Shown here in pieces: positions 1,213 through 51,807 of a stretch of DNA of 64,000 bases (position 1 is the stretch's first letter; every line of letters starts with the position of its first letter). This stretch comes from Escherichia coli. GTDB lineage: Bacteria; Pseudomonadota; Gammaproteobacteria; Enterobacterales; Enterobacteriaceae. Position numbers and translations under genes: made by a program. Location: assembly GCF_009931435.1 (NCBI RefSeq), contig NZ_CP043415.1, one strand, 5' to 3'. Under the pieces are notes generated by a model. The model made no database searches. It saw only the letters and a program-made list of their open reading frames with translations, and had not been told where the DNA came from.

Positions 1213-4029
1213 TTATTTTTTATGCTGGTAACTCTTTGCTTTCTCTAAAAGCTCTTTCGGACTATCAGCACCAGGTATTCTTTCCTGAGCCAGCTTTTCT
1301 TCATTATATTTATTATTCTGAGTTAATGCTTCTGTTTTATGATGATTTTGTAGTTCAGAATACTGCCCTTTTACAATATTTTCCTCGCCTCGGATGCTGT
1401 TCTGAGTATCTCCGATATTACCTCGATATTCTGTGACCATATTATCAACCTGATGTTTTACATCATTACGGATATTACTGTCCTGCGTTCTTTGCTCAAT
1501 AATGGCCTGATGTCCCTGATGATCAGCAATAATATCCTGGCTGCCACCACCCGAAGGTACGCTCTCCATTCCTTTACCTATATCTCTACGGGATTCACGC
1601 CAGGTGTTATCAACACCAGGCTGTACCTGTTCCTGCACAAAAGACCACGCCATAGCCCGACGGCGTTCTGCAATCTCCGGCGAACTGGTATTTGTCAGAA
1701 TAGCTTCAACATCCTGCGGTGCGTTTTTCATCACATACTGTGCAAACTGTTGCGACAGATCTTCACTCATCTGCCCACTCATACTCTCAGTACGGGATGC
1801 CATTTCAGCATATTCATGGCTGCGGGTCATATTCGTCGTGTACTGGTCGTAACTCTGTTTCGCTGAATTCAGGGCTGCAGACAACTGATCCACACGGGAA
1901 TCAGCATTATTGTCAGTATGGCTGCCGGATTCACTGACTTTGCGGCTGGTAAAGTAATCGCTGGCTTCTTTAAAGTCTTGTGTAGCTCTGGCATCGATAT
2001 CATGACGAGCATCATGGCTGGCCCGTGAACCACTACTGGCTTCATGTGAGTCAAGATCACTGCCATCAATGCTTGCCTTAGCTCCGGCCTGGAGACCAAC
2101 CCCTCCACCGTTACCCAATACACTTATGCCTAAATGCCCTTTAGCATAAGCATCACCGTAAAGGCCAAGCGACGCATTTGTACTTCTCGAGGCCAGTTCT
2201 CTCGTCGCCTGCTCATTACTGATATTATGCGCCTTCGCATAGCTTTCCACTGCACTGCGCATACGGCTGGCCATCATGGAGTCCTGAGCACTCATCGTGC
2301 TGTCAGCACCACCAGTGACAGAGTCACTGCTCCCCCGGTTAGAGCCAAACTGACTGAGTGTGTTCCAGGCACTGGCAATACTGCTGCTGAAACCATGCAG
2401 GGCACTTTCGGCTCTGTTCGACGCCTCCCGGGCCATTTCCTGTTGTGCCGCTGCAATCTGACGCGTTGCATTGATACCGACCGGTAACCGGGACATCGCT
2501 CCGCTTGCATCCATCACCATATTACCGTCACGGGTCTGTGTGGCGGTTGCGCCACTGCCGGTCTGGTACATCATCTGACCAAACGACGTGGTGCTGTTGG
2601 TGCTCCAGCTGAAGCCGTTCACGTTTTCCGTCTGCATGTTGCCGTAGGAGTAATTACCGTCAACCACACTGCCTGCTGCACTGGCCGTTGGACTGATAGA
2701 TGAAGAGGCGAAGTGGCTGTACACGCTGGAAAAACCTGCGCCAAGGCCTTTTACCATCATCCATGACAACGGGGGGATCATGGCTGAAAGATACCCGGCA
2801 GTGGAGGCCAGGTCAGAGTATTTCAGCTGTATCTGAGAGAGTTCAGACAACACGACCGGCGCACCATTCTGTTTCGCATAGAATGTCATGGCACTGTTCA
2901 GAATGGCATACAACAACGGCCAGGTCTGCAGCCACATCAGGGCAAACACATACCCCTTTAATACAGACAATGTCAGCTTGTTAAAGACAGCCGCCAGTAT
3001 CAGGAGCGGGAATATACCAATGGCAATCCCCGTCAGGATAGTCTGGACCATCGGCAGGTTTCGCATAGTTACATGACCAATGGAGACATGTGCCAGACGT
3101 TGTTTCTCCATCGATGACGTGGTGGCCAGACTTACCAGGCTGGCGGTGTCACCGTTACGGGCTGCATTACTGGTGATACCCTCTTTCAGGGCATTCATGG
3201 TGACGTTCTGGCGCATAATCTGGCTGGCAGACTGACTGGAGCCGTAGAAATAACTGTAACTGTCACTGACCAGTTGTCTGAATAACAGGTCCGGGTCCGG
3301 TCTGCCGCCAAATATCTGCTGCACATAATAATGCCAGGTCTTGCCTCCCGTCTTTGTATCGAGATTCAGCCTGTCTTTCAGCGTGACCGACGCATCCTTA
3401 CAAGTTATGAAATTATTATTGTTGTCATAAACGCCCCGTAGCGGGCTGGGGCGGGAAAAAATCAGCGTGTAGGGGTCAGCGGAGGCCATCAGGTCTTCCA
3501 GCGTGTATTTATGATTCAGGTAAATATCACCCAGCACGCAGTTCTGGACGTAGTCCTGGAACAGATTGATGATTTCCGGATTCCGGGACAGGAAATCGGT
3601 GCTTTTCACAATCAGATTCGCCCCGAACAGCATCCCCGTTTTGCTGTAGGTGACGCTGTCCGGTTGCGTGAAGATCATCTCGTAACTGGCCACCATTGCA
3701 TGCCCGATACGGGTCGTCAGTGAAAGTGGCATCGCCAGACCGACCGGCACATTATCCACCCGGTGAACTTTGACCAGGTCACTGTTATCAATAATCTGCA
3801 CCGATGTGCGGACATTAACCAGCAGGCTGATAAGCACAAACACGGCCACCCAGCCCAGCAAATCCATCACGTTGTGCCGCTGTACCCACATTACGGCCAC
3901 CGCGAGAACAGACAATGTGAGCGCAATTTTTTCAATGGAATCCCACGTCCAGGTTCCCATAAAGGCGGCAATGGCGTTCAGGTTATTCCGCAACCACTCA
4001 CCACCGGCAATCACATAAACTTCATTCAC
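1213..4029 (-). CDS. traG: TraG mating-pair stabilisation / entry-exclusion protein
   Basis: 938-aa ORF, same length as F TraG, membrane N-terminal half, located between traH and traS. Confidence 0.9.
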   Translation of the reverse strand: MNEVYVIAGGEWLRNNLNAIAAFMGTWTWDSIEKIALTLSVLAVAVMWVQRHNVMDLLGWVAVFVLISLLVNVRTSVQIIDNSDLVKVHRVDNVPVGLAMPLSLTTRIGHAMVASYEMIFTQPDSVTYSKTGMLFGANLIVKSTDFLSRNPEIINLFQDYVQNCVLGDIYLNHKYTLEDLMASADPYTLIFSRPSPLRGVYDNNNNFITCKDASVTLKDRLNLDTKTGGKTWHYYVQQIFGGRPDPDLLFRQLVSDSYSYFYGSSQSASQIMRQNVTMNALKEGITSNAARNGDTASLVSLATTSSMEKQRLAHVSIGHVTMRNLPMVQTILTGIAIGIFPLLILAAVFNKLTLSVLKGYVFALMWLQTWPLLYAILNSAMTFYAKQNGAPVVLSELSQIQLKYSDLASTAGYLSAMIPPLSWMMVKGLGAGFSSVYSHFASSSISPTASAAGSVVDGNYSYGNMQTENVNGFSWSTNSTTSFGQMMYQTGSGATATQTRDGNMVMDASGAMSRLPVGINATRQIAAAQQEMAREASNRAESALHGFSSSIASAWNTLSQFGSNRGSSDSVTGGADSTMSAQDSMMASRMRSAVESYAKAHNISNEQATRELASRSTNASLGLYGDAYAKGHLGISVLGNGGGVGLQAGAKASIDGSDLDSHEASSGSRASHDARHDIDARATQDFKEASDYFTSRKVSESGSHTDNNADSRVDQLSAALNSAKQSYDQYTTNMTRSHEYAEMASRTESMSGQMSEDLSQQFAQYVMKNAPQDVEAILTNTSSPEIAERRRAMAWSFVQEQVQPGVDNTWRESRRDIGKGMESVPSGGGSQDIIADHQGHQAIIEQRTQDSNIRNDVKHQVDNMVTEYRGNIGDTQNSIRGEENIVKGQYSELQNHHKTEALTQNNKYNEEKLAQERIPGADSPKELLEKAKSYQHKK

Positions 4030-43995: not shown

Positions 43996-44409
43996 ATTTG
44001 AGCACCAGTTTGGCATGGGAATTCTCCTCTCACATGCGGCCTCCACCAGGCCGTGCCGCACCTGTAACCGGGCGACCGCATACGAATGCAGGTGCGGCCC
44101 CGAAGCCGCAGCGCGTGGAGGAGGAACGACGAAACGTGACCGGGTGAGGAGGCCGGCGACAGCGACACACTTGCATCGGATGCAGCCCGGTTAACGTGCC
44201 GGCACGGCCTGGGTAACCAGGTATTTTGTCCACAGAACCGTGCACAAAATGCTGTGGATAAGCTGGACACAGCCGTCCACAGCAGGCATACAGCCACACC
44301 CTCAGAGAATTGAGCGTTTTTTAGTCACAATAATGACATTTGACTGTGTGTGGATTCAGTTATTAGAATACTGTATATGCATACAGCAAAAGAAAAGGGA
44401 GATGAGAAC

Positions 44410-44658
44410 ATGATCCGCATTGAAATTCTTTTCGACCGCCAGAGCACAAAAAACCTCAAATCAGGCACACTTCAGGCGCTACAGAATGAAATCGAACGAC
44501 GTCTGAAACCACACTACCCGGAAATCTGGCTGCGTATAGACCAGGGCAGCGCCCCGTCTGTATCTGTCACAGGAGCCCGCAACGACAAGGATAAAGAACG
44601 TATCCTGTCTCTGCTGGAAGAAATCTGGCAGGACGACAGCTGGCTGCCTGCAGCATGA
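44410..44658 (+). CDS. impC: ImpC, small regulator of the impCAB mutagenesis operon
   Basis: 82 aa from MIRIEILFDRQSTKNLKSGTLQALQNEIERRLKPHYPEIWLRIDQGSAPSV…; SD AAGGGAGA upstream. Confidence 0.85.
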   Translation: MIRIEILFDRQSTKNLKSGTLQALQNEIERRLKPHYPEIWLRIDQGSAPSVSVTGARNDKDKERILSLLEEIWQDDSWLPAA

Positions 44659-45074
44659 GTACCGTTTATCACCGTCCGGCTGACCCTTCAGGCAATGACA
44701 GTTACGTGCGACCGTTGTTTGCCGATCGTTGCCAGGCCGGTTTTCCTTCGCCTGCCACTGATTATGCTGAGCAGGAACTGGATCTGAACAGCTATTGCAT
44801 CAGCAGACCTGCAGCCACCTTCTTTCTGCGCGCCAGCGGTGAATCGATGAACCAGGCTGGCGTGCAGAATGGTGATCTGCTGGTAGTGGACAGGGCCGAA
44901 AAACCACAACACGGGGACATCGTTATCGCTGAGATCGACGGGGAGTTCACCGTCAAACGACTGCTGTTGCGCCCACGCCCGGCACTGGAGCCGGTTTCAG
45001 ACAGCCCGGAGTTCCGCACACTGTATCCGGAAAACATCTGTATTTTTGGTGTTGTCACTCACGTTGTTCATTGA
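44655..45074 (+). CDS. impA: ImpA (UmuD-like), C-terminus altered by a deletion
   Basis: 139 aa with LexA-like cleavage-site region (RASGESM) and catalytic domain; ends …GVVTHVVH, shorter than expected for UmuD-family proteins. Confidence 0.85.
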   Translation: MSTVYHRPADPSGNDSYVRPLFADRCQAGFPSPATDYAEQELDLNSYCISRPAATFFLRASGESMNQAGVQNGDLLVVDRAEKPQHGDIVIAEIDGEFTVKRLLLRPRPALEPVSDSPEFRTLYPENICIFGVVTHVVH

Positions 45075-46031
45075 TTTGCGGGGGGTGAACCGTTGCATCT
45101 CTCCGGAGGTTTTTGGTCATCAGCTCAGGGAACAAGTAAAGAGCTGGACAGGACTCGCCATGGGGGTGGGCATTGCACCTACAAAAACGCTGGCCAAAAG
45201 TGCACAGTGGGCAACAAAGCAATGGCCACAGTTTTCCGGTGTGGTCGCGCTGACGGCAGAAAACCGTAATCGGACCTTCAAGTTACTGGGGCAGCAGCCT
45301 GTTGGTGAAGTCTGGGGAGTAGGACGCAGACTGACGGAAAAGCTGAATGCGCAGGGTATTAACACAGCGCAGCAGCTGGCGCAGGCTAACACGGCATTCA
45401 TCCGGAAAAACTTCAGCGTCATTCTTGAGCATACAGTACGCGAACTCAACGGCGAGTCCTGCATATCTCCGGAAGAAGCCCCACCGGCAAAACAGCAGAT
45501 TGTCTGTAGCCGCAGTTTTGGTGAACGAATCACAGACAAAGATGCCATGCACCAGGCTGTTGTTCAGTATGCAGAGCGGGCCGCAGAGAAACTACGTGGG
45601 GAGCGTCAGTATTGCCGGCAGGTGGCGACATTTATACGAACGTCACCCTTTGCAGTGAAAGCCCCTGTTACAGCAATTCCGCTGTGGAAAAGCTTCCATT
45701 GCCTACACAGGACAGCCGGGACATTATTGCCGCAGCATGCAGAGCGTTAAACCATGTCTGGCGTGAAGGGTACCGCTATATGAAGGCAGGAGTCATGCTG
45801 GCTGATTTCACACCATCGGGTATAGCGCAGCCGGGATTATTTGATGAAATCCAGCCCCATAAAAACAGCGAAAAGTTAATGAAAACACTCGATGAACTGA
45901 ACCAGTCGGGAAAAGGGAAAGTGTGGTTTGCGGGGCGAGGAACCGCCCCTGAATGGCAAATGAAACGGGAAATGTTGAGTCAGTGTTATACAACTAAATG
46001 GCGAGATATTCCCCTGGCCAGGCTGGGTTAG
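45070..46031 (+). pseudogene. impB: impB (UmuC-like Y-family polymerase), N-terminally deleted and frameshifted
   Basis: Translation aligns to UmuC only from about residue 100 (…GVGIAPTKTLAK…); reading frame shifts near 45650-45665, with the C-terminal part continuing in another frame (45612-46031). Confidence 0.8.
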
Positions 46032-46032
46032 T

Positions 46033-46449
46033 TCAGTCATCTCCGAACATATTTTCAGCGTTTCTTCTGGTCTGGTCTTCACCGTCATTTCTCGACAGAC
46101 TCTGCTCTGTAAGAGGAGTACTGCAATCCACAGACGTATGGAGACCAGATTGTTTTTCCAGTAATTCAAGCAATTTCTTTTCAACCGAAAAAGCACCTGG
46201 TATTACGCTGGAAATCACCTTATTAATATCATCCAGAGTCGTATTTTCTGTCAGTAACTCCGATATCAGCAAAGGAAGACGTTTATCTATAGCTGCAAAC
46301 GCCGCACCAGTAACTAACATCGCGCGCATGAAACGTCCCCGCTCCTTCAGTTTTTCATTTGCAATGAGCTCATCTGCTATCTTATCTCCTGTCCGTTCAT
46401 CCGGGAAAAGTTCAAATGAGCAGCGTCTGGATTTATTTTCATCACTCAT
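46033..46449 (-). CDS. parR: ParR/StbB-like partition adaptor protein
   Basis: Small protein downstream of parM with similarity to R1 ParR (…ELLTENTTLDDINKVI…). Confidence 0.75.
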   Translation of the reverse strand: MSDENKSRRCSFELFPDERTGDKIADELIANEKLKERGRFMRAMLVTGAAFAAIDKRLPLLISELLTENTTLDDINKVISSVIPGAFSVEKKLLELLEKQSGLHTSVDCSTPLTEQSLSRNDGEDQTRRNAENMFGDD

Positions 46450-47422
46450 TAGTCACACCACCTTTCATTTTTATCATTCCCATGACTAAATCAAACTGCG
46501 GGGATGAGCTCAGATAAAAGCGCTCATCAGGAACCTTAGTCAGGTTCTTCACAGCCTCGGCCACAATTTCAGCCCCACCACCAACACACATTACATGTGT
46601 ATAGTCGGTGAAACGGCTGATGACATCATTAACTCGTTTAATAAGCAACTTCTGCCGTTCATTGATAACATTAATGATAGACTCACGCTGTTCAGCATTA
46701 TAAATGCGACGGGAAAGGTAGTCAGGTTCATTACGGTGCACAATGATATTGTCAGCCTGGAATGAGCTCACTCTTGTATTAGCATGTACAGCCATCTGTT
46801 CCTTAACCCCGGATGTAATCAGGGACACGCCGATATTCGGATCACACCAGGTTTTTGTAATCCCTGTCATTTTGCTACGAACATGCGACACATCAAGAGT
46901 TGTACCACCGAGATCTACGATCAAAAGGGATTCATCATCCTCAAGCCCCGCAAGAACACTGAAACCAGCGGGAATACTTTCAGGAAGAACGGAAACACTG
47001 CGAATAACAAATGCATCACTCCCCTGCACCCGTACTTCACGCATCACATTTTTTTTCTTTCTTTCAATGTTTTGCTTATTTTTCTGATTGTTGGCGTCAA
47101 GGTATTCAGAGATCGGCAATGTGACGATGACATCAATAGGCTGCGCTTTCAGGCCGGTCTGCTGTAGCGCATGCTGAATGGCCACAACATTCACATCACT
47201 GTACTGATAGCGTGTTTCAGTCGTTACGACAGCATCAGCACTTAATGGATCAAATGAAAACTTCTCGCCGTCGATCTCGTAATTAGCCGGGGCAGCATCA
47301 TCCAGTAAACTAAAAGACCATTCCGGTTTAAAGCTGTTAGGGCTGATTAACGTTTTCACGTCACCATCCTCCAACCAGGCAAGTTTAATGTTGGTAGAAC
47401 CATCATCAATAAAGATTTTCAT
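46442..47422 (-). CDS. parM: ParM/StbA actin-like partition ATPase
   Basis: Start set at MKIFIDDGSTNIKLAWLEDG; 326 aa with the R1 ParM-like actin fold (DLGGTTLDVS). Confidence 0.9.
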   Translation of the reverse strand: MKIFIDDGSTNIKLAWLEDGDVKTLISPNSFKPEWSFSLLDDAAPANYEIDGEKFSFDPLSADAVVTTETRYQYSDVNVVAIQHALQQTGLKAQPIDVIVTLPISEYLDANNQKNKQNIERKKKNVMREVRVQGSDAFVIRSVSVLPESIPAGFSVLAGLEDDESLLIVDLGGTTLDVSHVRSKMTGITKTWCDPNIGVSLITSGVKEQMAVHANTRVSSFQADNIIVHRNEPDYLSRRIYNAEQRESIINVINERQKLLIKRVNDVISRFTDYTHVMCVGGGAEIVAEAVKNLTKVPDERFYLSSSPQFDLVMGMIKMKGGVTNE

Positions 47423-47429
47423 AACCAGT

Positions 47430-47640
47430 CTCCGTTGCTCATAAACAAATAGAAAAAACAAATATGCTTCATACATGCAATGTATATTCAATTATAATGG
47501 AAAGATGGTCTTTCTGAAAGGGTACAAGCAACATAAAAACACAATAAACTGCATGTATATCGCACGTACAACCTTAAGACCAGAGAAAATCATAGATACA
47601 AAAAACATTATGAGTGTTATATGTGATACATAAATGCAAT
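47430..47640. promoter_or_regulatory. Putative parC-like centromere/promoter region upstream of parM
   Basis: AT-rich region with repeated CATGCAATGTATAT / GCATGTATATCGCACGTACA / ATGCAATATAAAA-type motifs, 5' of parM. Confidence 0.35.
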
Positions 47641-47835
47641 ATAAAAATATCTTTGACATCATGGTTCAGGTTAAGGGAAGGGAATGAAATGGTGAAACTG
47701 AGAGGAAAGGAAAGCGGTGACGAATCATGTCACCATATACAGAAAGATGTCTAATGGGGACTCTTTAGGTACACTAAGAATCCCCATAACGCATTTAAAA
47801 GACACACATTAGATACCCTTAAGGTATCCGATAGC

Positions 47836-48144
47836 TTATTGACCTATTGCGCCATCACGTTCAAGCTTCTCTCTTATAGCCTCAATAATATATGAGCTAA
47901 AATCCAGAGATGTTTTACTGGTCGCTTTAAGTTCCGCATGAGCTTCAAAATACGACAGCGGTATGGCCTTAAGATTCTTAGCCTTCGTCCTGGCGGCCAC
48001 GGGACGACCTGAAACTTCCTCTGTACCTTCATTTGGCTGAGACGGGACTGTTGCTGTTACGGCAGAAGAAGAAGTTTGTAATCTGGCAGAATCCACCAGG
48101 TTTTTCAGTTTTTCAGCCTGTGCACTAAATTTCGCTTTGCTCAT
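47836..48144 (-). CDS. ParG-like ribbon-helix-helix partition protein (putative)
   Basis: 102-aa ORF directly downstream of the ParA-like gene; C-terminal region looks RHH-like. Confidence 0.5.
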   Translation of the reverse strand: MSKAKFSAQAEKLKNLVDSARLQTSSSAVTATVPSQPNEGTEEVSGRPVAARTKAKNLKAIPLSYFEAHAELKATSKTSLDFSSYIIEAIREKLERDGAIGQ

Positions 48145-48230
48145 GAGATAACCCAGGATGTTTGTTAGATACTCAAAAGATATCCTTTAAAAACCCAAAG
48201 AATACTATATGGATACCCAATAGATACACT

Positions 48231-48875
48231 TTACTGTTTGTTATTTTCAATCAGATGATTGATTTCTTCGATCAGGGCAATAACTTCCTTACCTCCTGCC
48301 GAATAGCGCCCATGAACAGACTCAGTGATTCCCATCCCAGTCTCAATGACATCCTCAAATTCTGCACGAGCAGAAATGCGGCTCTTCATCAGCTTCAGAT
48401 GTTTGAACGATGGCAGGATTGCATCAAGCTTAGGGAATTTCTTCTTGTTAGGATTAACTTTACAGAGATACAGGTGAGCAGTTATATCAGTCCCCATGAT
48501 AGAGCTGATTTCGTCCAGTACTCCATCAAAATGCATCAAACCAATACGCTCAGTCAGGGAGTCTTTTGAAGGGACAATAACGCAGTCTGCAAAGGCAATC
48601 GCAGTACGGGTAAGATCTGAGTCAAATCCCCCACAGTCAATAAGTAACGTCTTATCGCTGTTCTTGTAGGGAGTCATAATTTCGATTAACTCATCCACTG
48701 TTTTGGGTACTTTCACGGAAATTTCTTTTCCTTCAGGTCTCAGCCCCAGAATGATAGAAAGCCCGGTATGAGTATCCAGATCAACTGTATCAGACTTCAT
48801 TTCACCAACAATGTTTACGGATGAAGTTGTCTTACCCACACCACCTTTGGGATGCGTATTAGCAATAACAGGCAT
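48231..48875 (-). CDS. parA: ParA/ParF-type partition ATPase (deviant Walker A)
   Basis: Start set at MPVIANTHPKGGVGKTT (214 aa); small ParA typical of type Ib systems. Confidence 0.8.
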   Translation of the reverse strand: MPVIANTHPKGGVGKTTSSVNIVGEMKSDTVDLDTHTGLSIILGLRPEGKEISVKVPKTVDELIEIMTPYKNSDKTLLIDCGGFDSDLTRTAIAFADCVIVPSKDSLTERIGLMHFDGVLDEISSIMGTDITAHLYLCKVNPNKKKFPKLDAILPSFKHLKLMKSRISARAEFEDVIETGMGITESVHGRYSAGGKEVIALIEEINHLIENNKQ

Positions 48876-49056
48876 AGTGTATCTCCAGAATCCACATGTA
48901 ATACCCATAAAGCCCCCCCAAAGACACCTTTCGGATATCCAAGAGGTACTCAATAGATGTTTTTTTTACTCTATACCGGCCCGGCATGTCAACAGAATAT
49001 GAAATACCGATAATATATCCATGAGATATCCGAAAGGGATTTAAAAAAGTCAGAGC

Positions 49057-49419
49057 TTAAGGAATTCTTTTGAGCATAGACACCGCATCGGACTCAAGCA
49101 TCGAAAACTGCACCCGGTGCCGTGCAGCCACATCCAGTGCAAATACCTTCGTGTAGACCTCCGTTGAACTGATGGACTTATGCCCCATCAGGCTCTGCAG
49201 GACCTTCAGCGGTATACCGACATACAGCATGTGCATCGCATAGGAATGGCGGAACGTATGTGGCGTGACCGGGACAGATAACGTCACACCGTCAGCGGTA
49301 ACCGCTTCCCCAATCCAGGCCCTGACCGTTCTGTCCGTCACTTCCCAGATCCGCGCTTTCTCTCTCCTGCCTGTCCGTTTATTACGCCGTTCCATGGGGA
49401 TTTTCAGTGTGGCCACCAT
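49057..49419 (-). pseudogene. Tyrosine recombinase/integrase remnant (C-terminal catalytic region only)
   Basis: 120-aa ORF containing HTFRHSYAMHMLYVGIPLKVLQSLMGHKSISSTEVYTKV (H-x-x-R … Y catalytic motif); no N-terminal domain in frame. Confidence 0.7.
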
Positions 49420-49820
49420 CGTCTGCAGCTGGCTGACGTACCAAGAGTCGGAGAGCGGAACCAGCCGGTGAGTCTACTGCCCGGCTGGCGTTCTTCCTGC
49501 CGTCCTGGCTGCTTTTTCTGTCCGCTGCTTCAGAGTGACCAGCAGGTATTTTGGCAGTTCATCATGAACCATCGACATATCCCTCAGTGAAGAGGAGGCT
49601 TATGGATGGTGTCGCTGCGGTAATTTCAGAACGTGCCATCATCCGTCCTGTATAGCGCATCTTCCTGCAGAAGGGTTTCAGCCGCCGCGGTAATAAATGC
49701 TCGTACCGTGCAGATAGCATTCTGCACACTCCCCGAACTGATATACACGGGTTCAAGAGATTCGGTAACTCCATCACGGTGTACCAGTGCGTTTCGGACC
49801 TTGATTACCCTCTCAAGTTC

Positions 49821-50593: not shown

Positions 50594-50920
50594 ATGACTA
50601 AAAATACTCGTTTTTCCCCCGAAGTCCGTCAACGCGCAGTTCGTATGGTTCTGGAAAGTCAGGGCGAATATGACTCACAGTGGGCGGCAATTTGTTCCAT
50701 TGCCCCAAAGATTGGCTGTACGCCGGAGACTCTGCGTGTCTGGGTTCGCCAGCATGAGCGGGATACCGGGGGCGGTGATGGTGGGCTCACCAGCGCTGAA
50801 CGTCAGCGTCTGAAAGAGCTGGAACGTGAAAATCGTGAACTGCGCTGCAGTAACGATATCCTTCGCCAGGCTTCCGCTTATTTTGCGAAGGCGGAGTTCG
50901 ACCGCCTCTGGAAAAAATGA
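50594..50920 (+). CDS. IS3-family transposase OrfA
   Basis: 108 aa, HTH and leucine zipper, [41 protein letters not shown]…. Confidence 0.9.
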
Positions 50921-51807
50921 TGCCACTGCTGGATAAGCTGCGTGAGCAGTACGGGGTCAGACCGGTATGCAGCGAACTGCATATTGCCCCGTCAACGTAT
51001 TACCATTGTCAGCAACAGCGACATCATCCGGATAAACGCAGTGCCCGTGCGCAGCACGATGACTGGCTGAAGAAAGAGATACAGCGCGTATACGATGAAA
51101 ATCACCAGGTATACGGTGTGCGTAAAGTCTGGCGTCAGTTGTTACGGGAAGGTATCAGAGTGGCCAGATGCACTGTGGCACGTCTCATGGCAGTTATGGG
51201 ACTTGCCGGTGTTCTCCGGGGTAAAAAGGTCCGCACTACCGTCAGCCGGAAAGCCGTTGCCGCATGCGACCGCGTAAACCGTCAGTTCGTGGCAGAACGT
51301 CCAGACCAGTTGTGGGTGGCTGATTTTACCTGGGTAAGCACATGGCAGGGCTTCGTTTATGTGGCGTTCATCATTGATGTGTTCGCCGGATACATCGTGG
51401 GATGGCAGGTCTCATCATCCATGGAAACAACATTCGTGCTGGATGCACTGGAGCAGGCGTTGTGGGCCCGTCGGCCGTCCGGCACAATCCATCACAGTGA
51501 TAAAGGTTCTCAGTATGTATCGCTGGCCTACACGCAGCGGCTTAAGGAAGCCGGATTACTGGCATCAACAGGGAGTACTGGCGACTCGTATGACAACGCG
51601 ATGGCGGAGAGCATCAATGGTCTTTACAAAGCGGAGGTAATACACCGTAAGAGCTGGAAAAACCGGACAGAAGTGGAACTGGCCACACTAACGTGGGTGG
51701 ACTGGTATAACAATCGACGATTGCTGGGAAGGCTGGGCCATACTCCTCCGGCAGAAGCAGAAAAAGCTTATTATGCTTCCATCGGAAACAATGATCTGGC
51801 AGCCTGA
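50917..51807 (+). CDS. IS3-family transposase OrfB (DDE integrase domain)
   Basis: 296 aa, overlaps the orfA 3' end. Confidence 0.9.

Follow-up and report, generated by a model that had tools for sequence, protein, structure and literature searches.

The parC site of plasmid R1 consists of 11-bp iterons that flank a promoter and are bound by a ribbon-helix-helix (RHH) protein, and the parH site of plasmid TP228 sits only upstream of parF. The TP228 centromere has been described (PMC3130281) as an array in which AT-rich spacers separate short degenerate boxes, and it doubles as an operator. In pSM19035, repeat arrays overlap the promoters of both the ParA gene and the RHH ParB gene and act as operator and centromere, with at least four contiguous repeats being needed (PMC9499535). 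The type Ib locus of pB171 has arrays upstream and downstream (PMC7602700), and the arrays on both sides of the type Ib locus of the IncI1 plasmid pESBL bind its 100-aa ParB and stabilise mini-F (Daniel et al., 2020; PMC7602700).

The window analysed here, a 64,000-nt stretch of Escherichia coli DNA, most probably contains two autonomous plasmid-partition cassettes in one shared backbone block of R64-type IncI1 plasmids, residing in this case within an IncF-type plasmid, with the repeat arrays of the second, type Ib cassette serving as its centromere and as a switch for its expression. Of the two, cassette 1 (46033 to ~47660) is an unremarkable ParM/ParR locus of type II and has a probable promoter and parC region of its own. 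Cassette 2 (47715-49043) comprises yefA, yegA and ~25 copies of an 11-bp unit in three arrays, and is an uncharacterised member of type Ib, itself a known kind. A literature search found no functional study of the yefA-yegA module, which has apparently gone unstudied.

A type II and a type Ib cassette in tandem

An earlier note on this DNA had read the region as two partition systems in tandem, parMR and then a ParA with a 102-aa protein on one strand, and both gene content and strand agree with that description: by position, ParR, ParM, the 102-aa protein (YegA) and the ParF-like ATPase follow one another on the minus strand (Table 1).

Table 1. Features of the two cassettes and their flank, by position in the window.
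Feature	Position	Strand	Description
parR/stbB	46033..46449	-	Type II adaptor, 138 aa; Pfam PF10784 Plasmid_stab_B, E 7.6e-28
parM/stbA	46442..47422	-	Actin-like ATPase of type II system, 326 aa; Pfam PF06406 1.5e-81, PF21523 2.6e-72
Probable parM promoter and parC region	47440..47660	-	Low confidence, approximate boundaries
Terminator-like hairpin	47715..47735	-	Ends parA-yegA transcription unit; 7-pair stem (4 G-C), then CTTTCCTTTC
Downstream array	47743..47830	-	8 in-phase 11-bp positions; six at >=8 bits, one at 5.9
yegA	47836..48144	-	102-aa centromere-binding-protein candidate; N-terminal helix, variable disordered linker, C-terminal RHH
Intercistronic array	48143..48230	-	8 contiguous 11-bp units
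parA (yefA)	48231..48875	-	214-aa ParF-like deviant Walker A ATPase, from ATG 48875
Promoter-proximal upstream array	48886..48963	-	~7 unit positions, from -10 element to parA start
Perfect inverted repeat, 13 nt	48927..49037	.	Brackets parA promoter
parA promoter-like element	48963..48992	-	TTGACA-N18-TAAAAA, conserved hexamers
Promoter-distal upstream array	49000..49032	-	3 units, possible fourth at 49033-49043
resD-like tyrosine integrase gene, 5'-truncated	49057..49543	-	Flanking backbone gene; Pfam Phage_integrase 4.7e-14, 120-aa ORF left

In cassette 1, the actin-like ParM is followed by ParR, both recognised by Pfam, as expected of a type II ParMRC locus such as that of R1. Upstream of parM, a promoter-like site (TTCAGA-16-TATAAT, 47518..47491, minus strand) is flanked by a 15-nt inverted repeat (47471-85 / 47544-58), and the stretch from 47423 to 47714 shows a lag-11 autocorrelation z of 3.1. 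A k-mer search upstream of parM for a clean parC iteron returned T-rich low-complexity matches only, such that parC, unlike that of R1, is not resolved here into clean iterons.

The yefA product of cassette 2 corresponds to the type Ib form of ParA, being a deviant Walker A protein in the ~200-220 aa range with a KGGVGKT motif and no N-terminal DNA-binding extension. The NCBIfam ParA_partition model covers it at full length (residues 3-203 aligned; 1.6e-14, below the curated cut-off), and a profile of eight yefA homologues gives full-length matches to ParA 5u1g_D (E 6e-12) and to the ParF protein of TP228 (4dzz_A; E 1e-11). The protein belongs to PHROG 164, ParA-like partition proteins. Existing labels for this ATPase are 'type II partitioning protein' or a filing under site-specific recombination. 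The use of a Walker ATPase, in place of an actin-like one, distinguishes cassette 2 from R1 ParMRC, whose parC geometry the arrays of cassette 2 resemble.

Downstream of parA, again as in type Ib loci, yegA encodes a small adaptor with a predicted RHH fold. Modelling presents YegA as an RHH dimer with a conserved N-terminal helix, a layout of N-terminal tail and C-terminal RHH like that of ParG and omega; in TP228, too, the N-terminal tail or helix of the adaptor is thought to contact the ATPase. YegA matched none of the curated ParB/ParG families, and Pfam ParG was absent for YegA and 26 homologues at E values up to 10, a search in which HMMER filters drop most matches above ~0.1 and a very weak one could escape. 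On that basis YegA was not placed in the Pfam ParG (TP228 ParF/ParG) family, and cassette 2 further differs from TP228 in having 11-bp units and three arrays, one of which lies between the genes. The yegA product is routinely, and wrongly, annotated as 'molecular chaperone GroEL' or 'hypothetical'.

Two described loci share the backbone position of cassette 2. In pB171 and pUTI89, as here, a type Ib system neighbours a type II one in the backbone slot bounded by a resD-like integrase and umuDC; in the window, homology of the integrase remnant to the intact 780-bp IncI1 gene ends at 49543. The pB171/pUTI89 systems are divergent and share parC1, whereas those of the window are in tandem with a terminator-like hairpin between them, and identity with that double par locus was rejected (in a comparison made against the pUTI89 sequence, ParA is 19% identical, the ParB proteins are unalignable and the arrangement differs). 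The pESBL locus is likewise an IncI1 backbone type Ib locus, by impB/umuC, with a ~100-aa ParB of unrecognisable family, but its genes overlap, so that an intercistronic array is lacking, and no parMR adjoins it; this locus too was rejected, on the grounds of a ParA only 24% identical, an octamer (GATAACAA) with 0 matches in 64 kb and a different layout. As judged by sequence comparison, yefA-yegA is unrelated to the pB171 and pESBL type Ib systems of the same slot.

The 11-bp unit and its arrays

The GATAC-type motifs that the earlier note had placed at ~48160-48225 and ~47760-47830 are present, and constitute the cores of an 11-bp unit with the consensus TGGGTATCTTT in gene orientation. Nearly all copies are gene-oriented, and they form three phased arrays around and within yefA-yegA, one around the parA promoter, one filling the whole 86-bp parA/yegA spacer and one downstream of yegA ahead of the terminator-like hairpin; short-repeat arrays that adjoin the operon are a type Ib trait. 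The intercistronic array reads AGTGTATCTAT / TGGGTATCCAT / ATAGTATTCTT / TGGGTTTTTAA / AGGATATCTTT / TGAGTATCTAA, with in-phase units at 48165/76/87/98/209/220, followed by two degenerate units, the last of which overlaps the yegA ribosome-binding site and start codon. Units of the downstream array lie at 47820, 47809, 47798, 47776, 47765, 47754 and 47743. Upstream of parA, the promoter-proximal units at 48953, 48942, 48931, 48920 and 48897 score 6.0-10.1 bits, those at 48908 and 48886 are degenerate, and a one-base phase slip occurs near 48919; the promoter-distal units CGGATATCTCA, TGGATATATTA and TCGGTATTTCA score 8.3-10.0 bits. Several units among the arrays are degenerate. This third set (48897-48963 and 49000-49032) had been noticed previously solely as an inverted repeat.

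The 11-bp repeats occur beyond chance. In all three non-coding segments the strongest autocorrelation lag is 11 or its multiple 22, with lag-11 z values against dinucleotide shuffles of 5.2 (48876-49056), 3.2 (intercistronic; lag-22 z = 4.4) and 2.8 (downstream), and neither of the two coding sequences shows the periodicity (z of -1.8 and 0.5). A position matrix derived from the intergenic array of one K. pneumoniae homologue alone finds 16 same-strand sites in the 378 bp of non-coding DNA versus 1.4 expected (Poisson P ~3e-12).

Arrays precede both parA and yegA, but only parA has a conserved promoter-like element upstream of it. The sequence TTGAC[AT]-N18-TAAAAA recurs at -115/-117 relative to the ATG of parA, both in the window and in three enterobacterial homologues (L006, L007 and L009), with a diverged spacer sequence; its poor -10 hexamer caused it to be missed by a generic promoter scan. 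Neither that scan nor one across eight loci gave a consistent internal promoter in the parA/yegA spacer. The hairpin downstream of yegA is the sole terminator-like site within 47400-49100. The inverted repeat that the earlier note had seen upstream of the ParA gene proves to be perfect, with 13-nt arms (48927-48939 / 49025-49037) that are 100% complementary and lie 85 nt apart. Both arms consist of the unit variant GATATCCGAAAGG, which has a palindromic core of its own (GATATC), so that the inverted repeat amounts to a single array unit present twice in opposite orientations; inverted unit pairs, read from the sequences, also lie upstream of parA in L006 and L007.

Array positions in diverged homologues

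An 11-bp-periodic spacer of 40-95 bp separates the two genes in eight of eight diverged homologues (E. albertii, K. pneumoniae, Salmonella, pKPC_UVA01, Vibrio, Aeromonas, Citrobacter and Vibrio phage K303; lag-11 z of 2.9-5.2), among them pKPC_UVA01, whose box has drifted to GGAATCC, and every locus examined has an array between the two par genes. An equivalent of the downstream array occurs in the enterobacterial homologues L006-L009 and, among the loci examined, is absent from those of Vibrio, Aeromonas, Citrobacter and the phage; it is therefore dispensable for the yefA-yegA family.

On other plasmids and on phage genomes, the ParA/RHH module and its arrays are present with no adjacent parMR, and because the arrays occur without ParMR, it is the ParA/RHH module that owns them. 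Taken over all loci, with or without parMR, the arrays accompany the ParA/RHH pair on IncI1, IncFII and IncFIA/FIB/FIC replicons, on a MOBC plasmid and an IncP-typed one, on plasmids of Vibrio and Aeromonas and on phage genomes, and the neighbours vary from a tyrosine integrase or serine recombinase to RepB, an antirestriction gene or a toxin-antitoxin pair. Near-identical copies of the module are found in 1108 PLSDB records from Escherichia, Salmonella, Shigella and Klebsiella, IncF virulence and resistance plasmids among them, and 1074 of these (~97%) hold the whole block including parMR; together, yefA-yegA and parMR form an R64-type IncI1 backbone module.

Centromere, operator or shared site

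Since the repeats are genuine, phased, conserved in position in diverged homologues and tied to the ParA/RHH pair, a centromere/operator role is the best-supported reading of the arrays. The proposal of an "atypically placed centromere" in the earlier note is supported as regards the centromere; as for placement, flanking arrays are not exceptional for type Ib loci (pB171, pSM19035, pESBL; PMC7602700), and it is the array in the parA/yegA spacer that is unusual. By analogy of layout, the delta/omega system of the Firmicute plasmid pSM19035, likened to cassette 2 for having arrays before both the ATPase gene and the RHH gene, appears to be the best architectural analogue for this intercistronic array. 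The two differ in their units (contiguous 7-bp heptads of mixed orientation there, mostly direct 11-bp units here) and in that omega has its own promoter, whereas none is detectable in the parA/yegA spacer.

From these features we infer that YegA binds DNA, stimulates the ATPase and represses the operon, and that the cassette stabilises the plasmid. YegA dimers would bind successive units cooperatively, with the 11-bp period placing them on roughly one face of the helix, and the resulting nucleoprotein complexes would form the centromere. The conserved N-terminal helix (K12, K14, R21), borne on a flexible linker, may contact nucleoid-bound ParA-ATP and stimulate its ATPase activity, and plasmid copies would be spaced by a ParA-gradient (diffusion-ratchet) mechanism. 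With arrays both flanking and following the parA promoter, YegA may also act as autorepressor of the operon. The intercistronic array is probably the core centromere, because it is the sole feature kept in every homologue, and is possibly a brake that tunes YegA synthesis. Extending this, we tentatively suggest that it could be the primary centromere of the whole yefA-yegA family, embedded in the partition operon and transcribed with it, where the bound adaptor might set the ParA:adaptor ratio by acting as a roadblock, or transcription through the array might remodel the segrosome.

Were the arrays mainly transcriptional operators, with YegA an autorepressor, yefA-yegA devoted to something other than partition (e.g. 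positioning or regulation) and ParMR the sole partition system, a plain repressor would have little need of ~25 sites or of arrays inside and downstream of its operon. The partner of YegA is, moreover, a full-length ParF-like ATPase, the two genes keep together on plasmids and phage genomes where no parMR adjoins them, and dual use as operator and centromere is the rule in type Ib systems (PMC9499535, PMC7602700); we consider this explanation unlikely. That the repeats are instead replication iterons or a resD-like integrase recombination site, and no part of the ParA pair, is suggested by the integrase gene abutting the upstream array and by the RepB initiator gene just upstream in Salmonella pCFSAN076215. 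This we hold to be highly improbable, as the arrays follow the ParA/RHH pair across varied replicons and neighbours, and the two par genes always have an array between them.

A closer linkage of the cassettes, as in pB171, would make the downstream array a shared cis site and YegA a regulator or competitor of ParMR. Such coupling has precedent, in that pB171-type loci have a parC1 common to both systems and deletion of parB in pUTI89 raises stbA 16-fold (PMC9800825), and it would accord with the tandem arrangement of nearly all near-identical copies and with the downstream array ending ~225 bp from the parM promoter-like site. The terminator-like hairpin and ~200 bp, however, intervene between that array and the parM promoter; in K. 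pneumoniae pKPN-0d7f the downstream array is kept although the next gene is umuC and parMR is missing, and in Salmonella pCFSAN076215 umuDC separates the cassettes. ParM and ParR are, in addition, only 36% and 30% identical to pUTI89 ParM and StbB, and the type Ib proteins are unrelated, leaving coupling quite unlikely in our estimation. The centromere/operator reading is accordingly retained, with the two systems, as far as their sequences indicate, juxtaposed and not functionally merged, because a terminator-like hairpin lies between the cassettes and the ParA/RHH module occurs with its arrays in the absence of adjacent parMR.

Recognition that the type Ib cassette is complete and has a defined 11-bp unit corrects the annotation of yefA and yegA, genes that are very common on resistance and virulence plasmids, and predicts partition-mediated incompatibility determinants for a major resistance-plasmid family. 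It also brings to at least three the number of unrelated type Ib cassettes in the slot between resD and umuDC/impCAB. A centromere inside the operon would be a design undescribed for Gram-negative type Ib systems, in a family that extends to Vibrio phage genomes, and three arrays, one of them an invariant intercistronic array, offer a compact test case for the way in which a working centromere is assembled by RHH adaptors that do not spread. If the intercistronic array is the primary centromere, expression of the partition machinery would be linked directly to the occupancy of its own centromere.

Repeat arrays of the tandem partition block

Gene calls and Pfam searches agree with the earlier note that a parMR locus is followed on one strand by genes for a ParA and a 102-aa RHH-like protein, the latter being RHH by prediction only; the minus strand carries every gene of the interval. 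On one side the block is flanked by dinI-like/umuD/umuC genes (impCAB), and on the other by the remnant of a resD-like tyrosine integrase. The GATAC-containing motifs reported around the small gene are indeed present, and prove to be the cores of an 11-bp unit (consensus in gene orientation, TGGGTATCTTT) that is repeated in three arrays, all read in gene direction. The last intercistronic unit overlaps the yegA start codon and ribosome-binding site. The inverted repeat noted upstream of the ParA gene has perfect 13-nt arms (48927-39 / 49025-37), which are two opposite-orientation copies of a unit variant, GATATCCGAAAGG, one on each side of the promoter.

Coordinates of genes, repeat arrays and transcription signals in the window
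Feature	Position	Strand	Details
ParR/StbB	46033-46449	minus	Pfam PF10784, 7.6e-28
ParM/StbA	46442-47422	minus	PF06406, 1.5e-81
Terminator-like hairpin	47715-47735		after downstream array; sole one in region
Downstream array	47743-47830		eight in-phase positions 3' of yegA
102-aa protein (yegA)	47836-48144	minus	no family in Pfam or NCBIfam
Intercistronic array	48143-48230		eight contiguous units = entire 86-bp parA/yegA spacer
Walker-type ATPase (yefA/parA)	48231-48875	minus	KGGVGKT; 214 aa from same ATG as RefSeq
Upstream array, promoter-proximal part	48886-48963		~seven unit positions, -10 hexamer to parA start codon
parA promoter-like element	-35, 48987-48992; -10, 48963-48968	minus	-35 TTGACA; -10 TAAAAA
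Upstream array, promoter-distal part	49000-49032		three units just ahead of TTGACA -35 hexamer

Autocorrelation identifies lag 11 or a multiple (lag 22) as the strongest periodicity in every non-coding segment (lag-11 z = 5.2, 3.2 and 2.8 in three segments, relative to dinucleotide shuffles); the same analysis finds no lag-11 signal in either coding sequence. To avoid circularity, a position matrix was built solely from the intergenic array of a Klebsiella pneumoniae homologue; this matrix returns 16 same-strand matches in 378 bp of non-coding DNA, as compared to 1.4 expected (P ~3e-12).

The ParMR cassette appears independent of the ParA/YegA cassette. A promoter-like site of its own lies at 47491-47518, and the region upstream of its genes shows weak 11-bp periodicity, but a search there did not delimit parC. 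An inverted repeat of 15 nt (47471-47485 / 47544-47558; ATACATGCAATGTAT / ATAAACTGCATGTAT; 87% complementary) brackets the parM promoter-like site, and a related copy lies at ~47626-47642; these elements are candidate ParR sites.

A family of ParA/small-protein loci

A profile of eight ParA homologues gives full-length matches to ParA 5u1g_D (E 6e-12) and TP228 ParF 4dzz_A (1e-11), identifying the window ATPase by homology as a ParF-like type Ib enzyme. Modelling supports, as a prediction, an RHH assignment for the small protein, for which DndE, WYL1, VirC2 and AvtR are listed. Its conserved N-terminal segment is helical in the model (K12 and K14 invariant, R21 shared by 90% or more of the sequences), and is joined through a variable, low-confidence linker to 50 strongly conserved C-terminal residues.

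Searches by tblastn with the small protein recovered diverged homologues down to ~48% identity. We compared loci from E. albertii IncFIA/FII, K. pneumoniae pKPN-0d7f IncFII, Salmonella pCFSAN076215, pKPC_UVA01, Vibrio parahaemolyticus and Aeromonas caviae plasmids, Citrobacter pLNU-11 and Vibrio phage K303. In all eight, a ParA gene is separated from the small gene that follows it by 40-95 bp of DNA with an 11-bp period (z 2.9-5.2). Upstream of parA, five of the eight give a clear lag-11 signal (z 3.2-5.2); it weakens in Citrobacter (z 2.4) and in pKPC_UVA01 (z 1.8), and is undetectable in Aeromonas (z 1.0); among these loci, the downstream array is limited to the enterobacterial ones. Most loci have a (G/A)(G/A)TATC-like box, which has drifted to GGAATCC in pKPC_UVA01. 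In four loci a TTGAC[AT]-N18-TAAAAA element, diverged in its spacer sequence, is positioned at -115/-117 relative to the start of parA. Since several loci lack an adjacent parMR, and umuDC lies between the two cassettes in the Salmonella plasmid, this comparison indicates that the arrays belong to the ParA/small-protein pair rather than to ParMR, the integrase or a replicon.

The same module, with a ParA, a 79-aa RHH protein and arrays of 11-bp period both upstream of the two genes and between them, occurs in 82 records of Vibrio phages, 36.4 kb in length (for example K303, our locus L013; OZ195676.1, 1739-2683), which are possibly phage-plasmids. The K303 annotation places a 35-aa ORF over the spacer, and this ORF is probably spurious.

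Partition cassettes beside umuDC

The pair shares its slot, from integrase to umuDC, with the double par locus of pB171/pUTI89. Identity with that locus is ruled out by its divergent arrangement, by a ParA of 19% identity and by a ParB that fails to align. The IncI1 par locus of pESBL, type Ib by experiment (PMC7602700), is also distinct, having a ParA of 24% identity, overlapping genes and an octamer, GATAACAA, that is absent from the window. Sequence comparison thus places type Ib cassettes of at least three unrelated types, those of pB171/pUTI89 (L002), pESBL (L005) and the window, beside umuDC/impCAB in different IncF/IncI plasmids. Because these cassettes share one slot, are found in both orientations and may or may not be accompanied by ParMR, the pattern suggests that partition cassettes are exchanged as modules between the resD-like integrase and umuDC/impCAB.

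IncFIA/FIB/FIC E. coli plasmids carry the 3.3-kb block at 100% identity, and a large set of IncI1 plasmids carries it at ~98%. Window positions 43996-49543 are common to the IncI1 plasmid pCERC6 (97-99% identity), and alignment places one edge of this IncI1-like segment within an IncF-type plasmid at 49543. The integrase (49057-49543) is 5'-truncated and matches the intact IncI1 gene, which is 780 bp long, no further than 49543; an IS3-family element lies beyond it (50594-51807). At the other flank, impB/umuC (45046-46031) is a remnant of two overlapping ORFs (234 and 139 aa), because a 334-bp deletion relative to pCERC6, at 45064/45065, takes out the 5' part of impB. In a 100%-identical plasmid (L001, NZ_CP065971.1), a group II intron reverse transcriptase/maturase gene (ltrA, 1764-3488) lies ~2.5 kb past the dinI-like gene.

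A candidate centromere in a mis-annotated cassette

The earlier note's suggestion that the repeats may form a centromere is supported by the retention of 11-bp arrays with the ParA/small-protein pair across homologous loci. As the sole array retained across the whole family, the intercistronic one is the strongest candidate for the core centromere. Omega, ParG and similar RHH adaptors require four or more repeats in a contiguous array, bind sites that overlap promoters, and contact ParA through their N-terminus (PMC9499535). By analogy with these adaptors and the pESBL precedent, we infer that YegA dimers would bind successive units cooperatively, that the arrays would act as centromere, with those surrounding the promoter doubling as operator, and that the YegA N-terminal helix, on its flexible linker, would activate nucleoid-bound ParA. 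In the nearest analogue, pSM19035, a repeat array overlaps the RHH gene's promoter; in the window, by contrast, a search of the parA/yegA spacer detected no promoter.

At a threshold of at least 80% present, 1108 PLSDB records hold the ParA/small-gene module and 1074 the whole tandem block. Where records use R64 gene names, the ATPase goes by yefA and is described as 'type II bacterial partitioning protein', and the small gene goes by yegA and is described as 'hypothetical'; elsewhere in RefSeq/GenBank the ATPase is labelled 'MipZ', and RefSeq frequently labels the 102-aa protein 'molecular chaperone GroEL'. The naming of both proteins across many records is a systematic annotation error. Citing the R64 description, PMC4541600 lists yefA and resD together as genes of site-specific recombination, and gives the name 'parAB' to ParM/ParR. 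Among the papers that could be searched, none addresses yefA/yegA function, which may nevertheless have been characterised earlier, for example in the R64 genome paper. Type II and type Ib systems in tandem form a known theme. Of the two cassettes here, the type Ib one is a widespread, mis-annotated and apparently uncharacterised system of known kind, of which the conserved intercistronic array is one uncommon feature.
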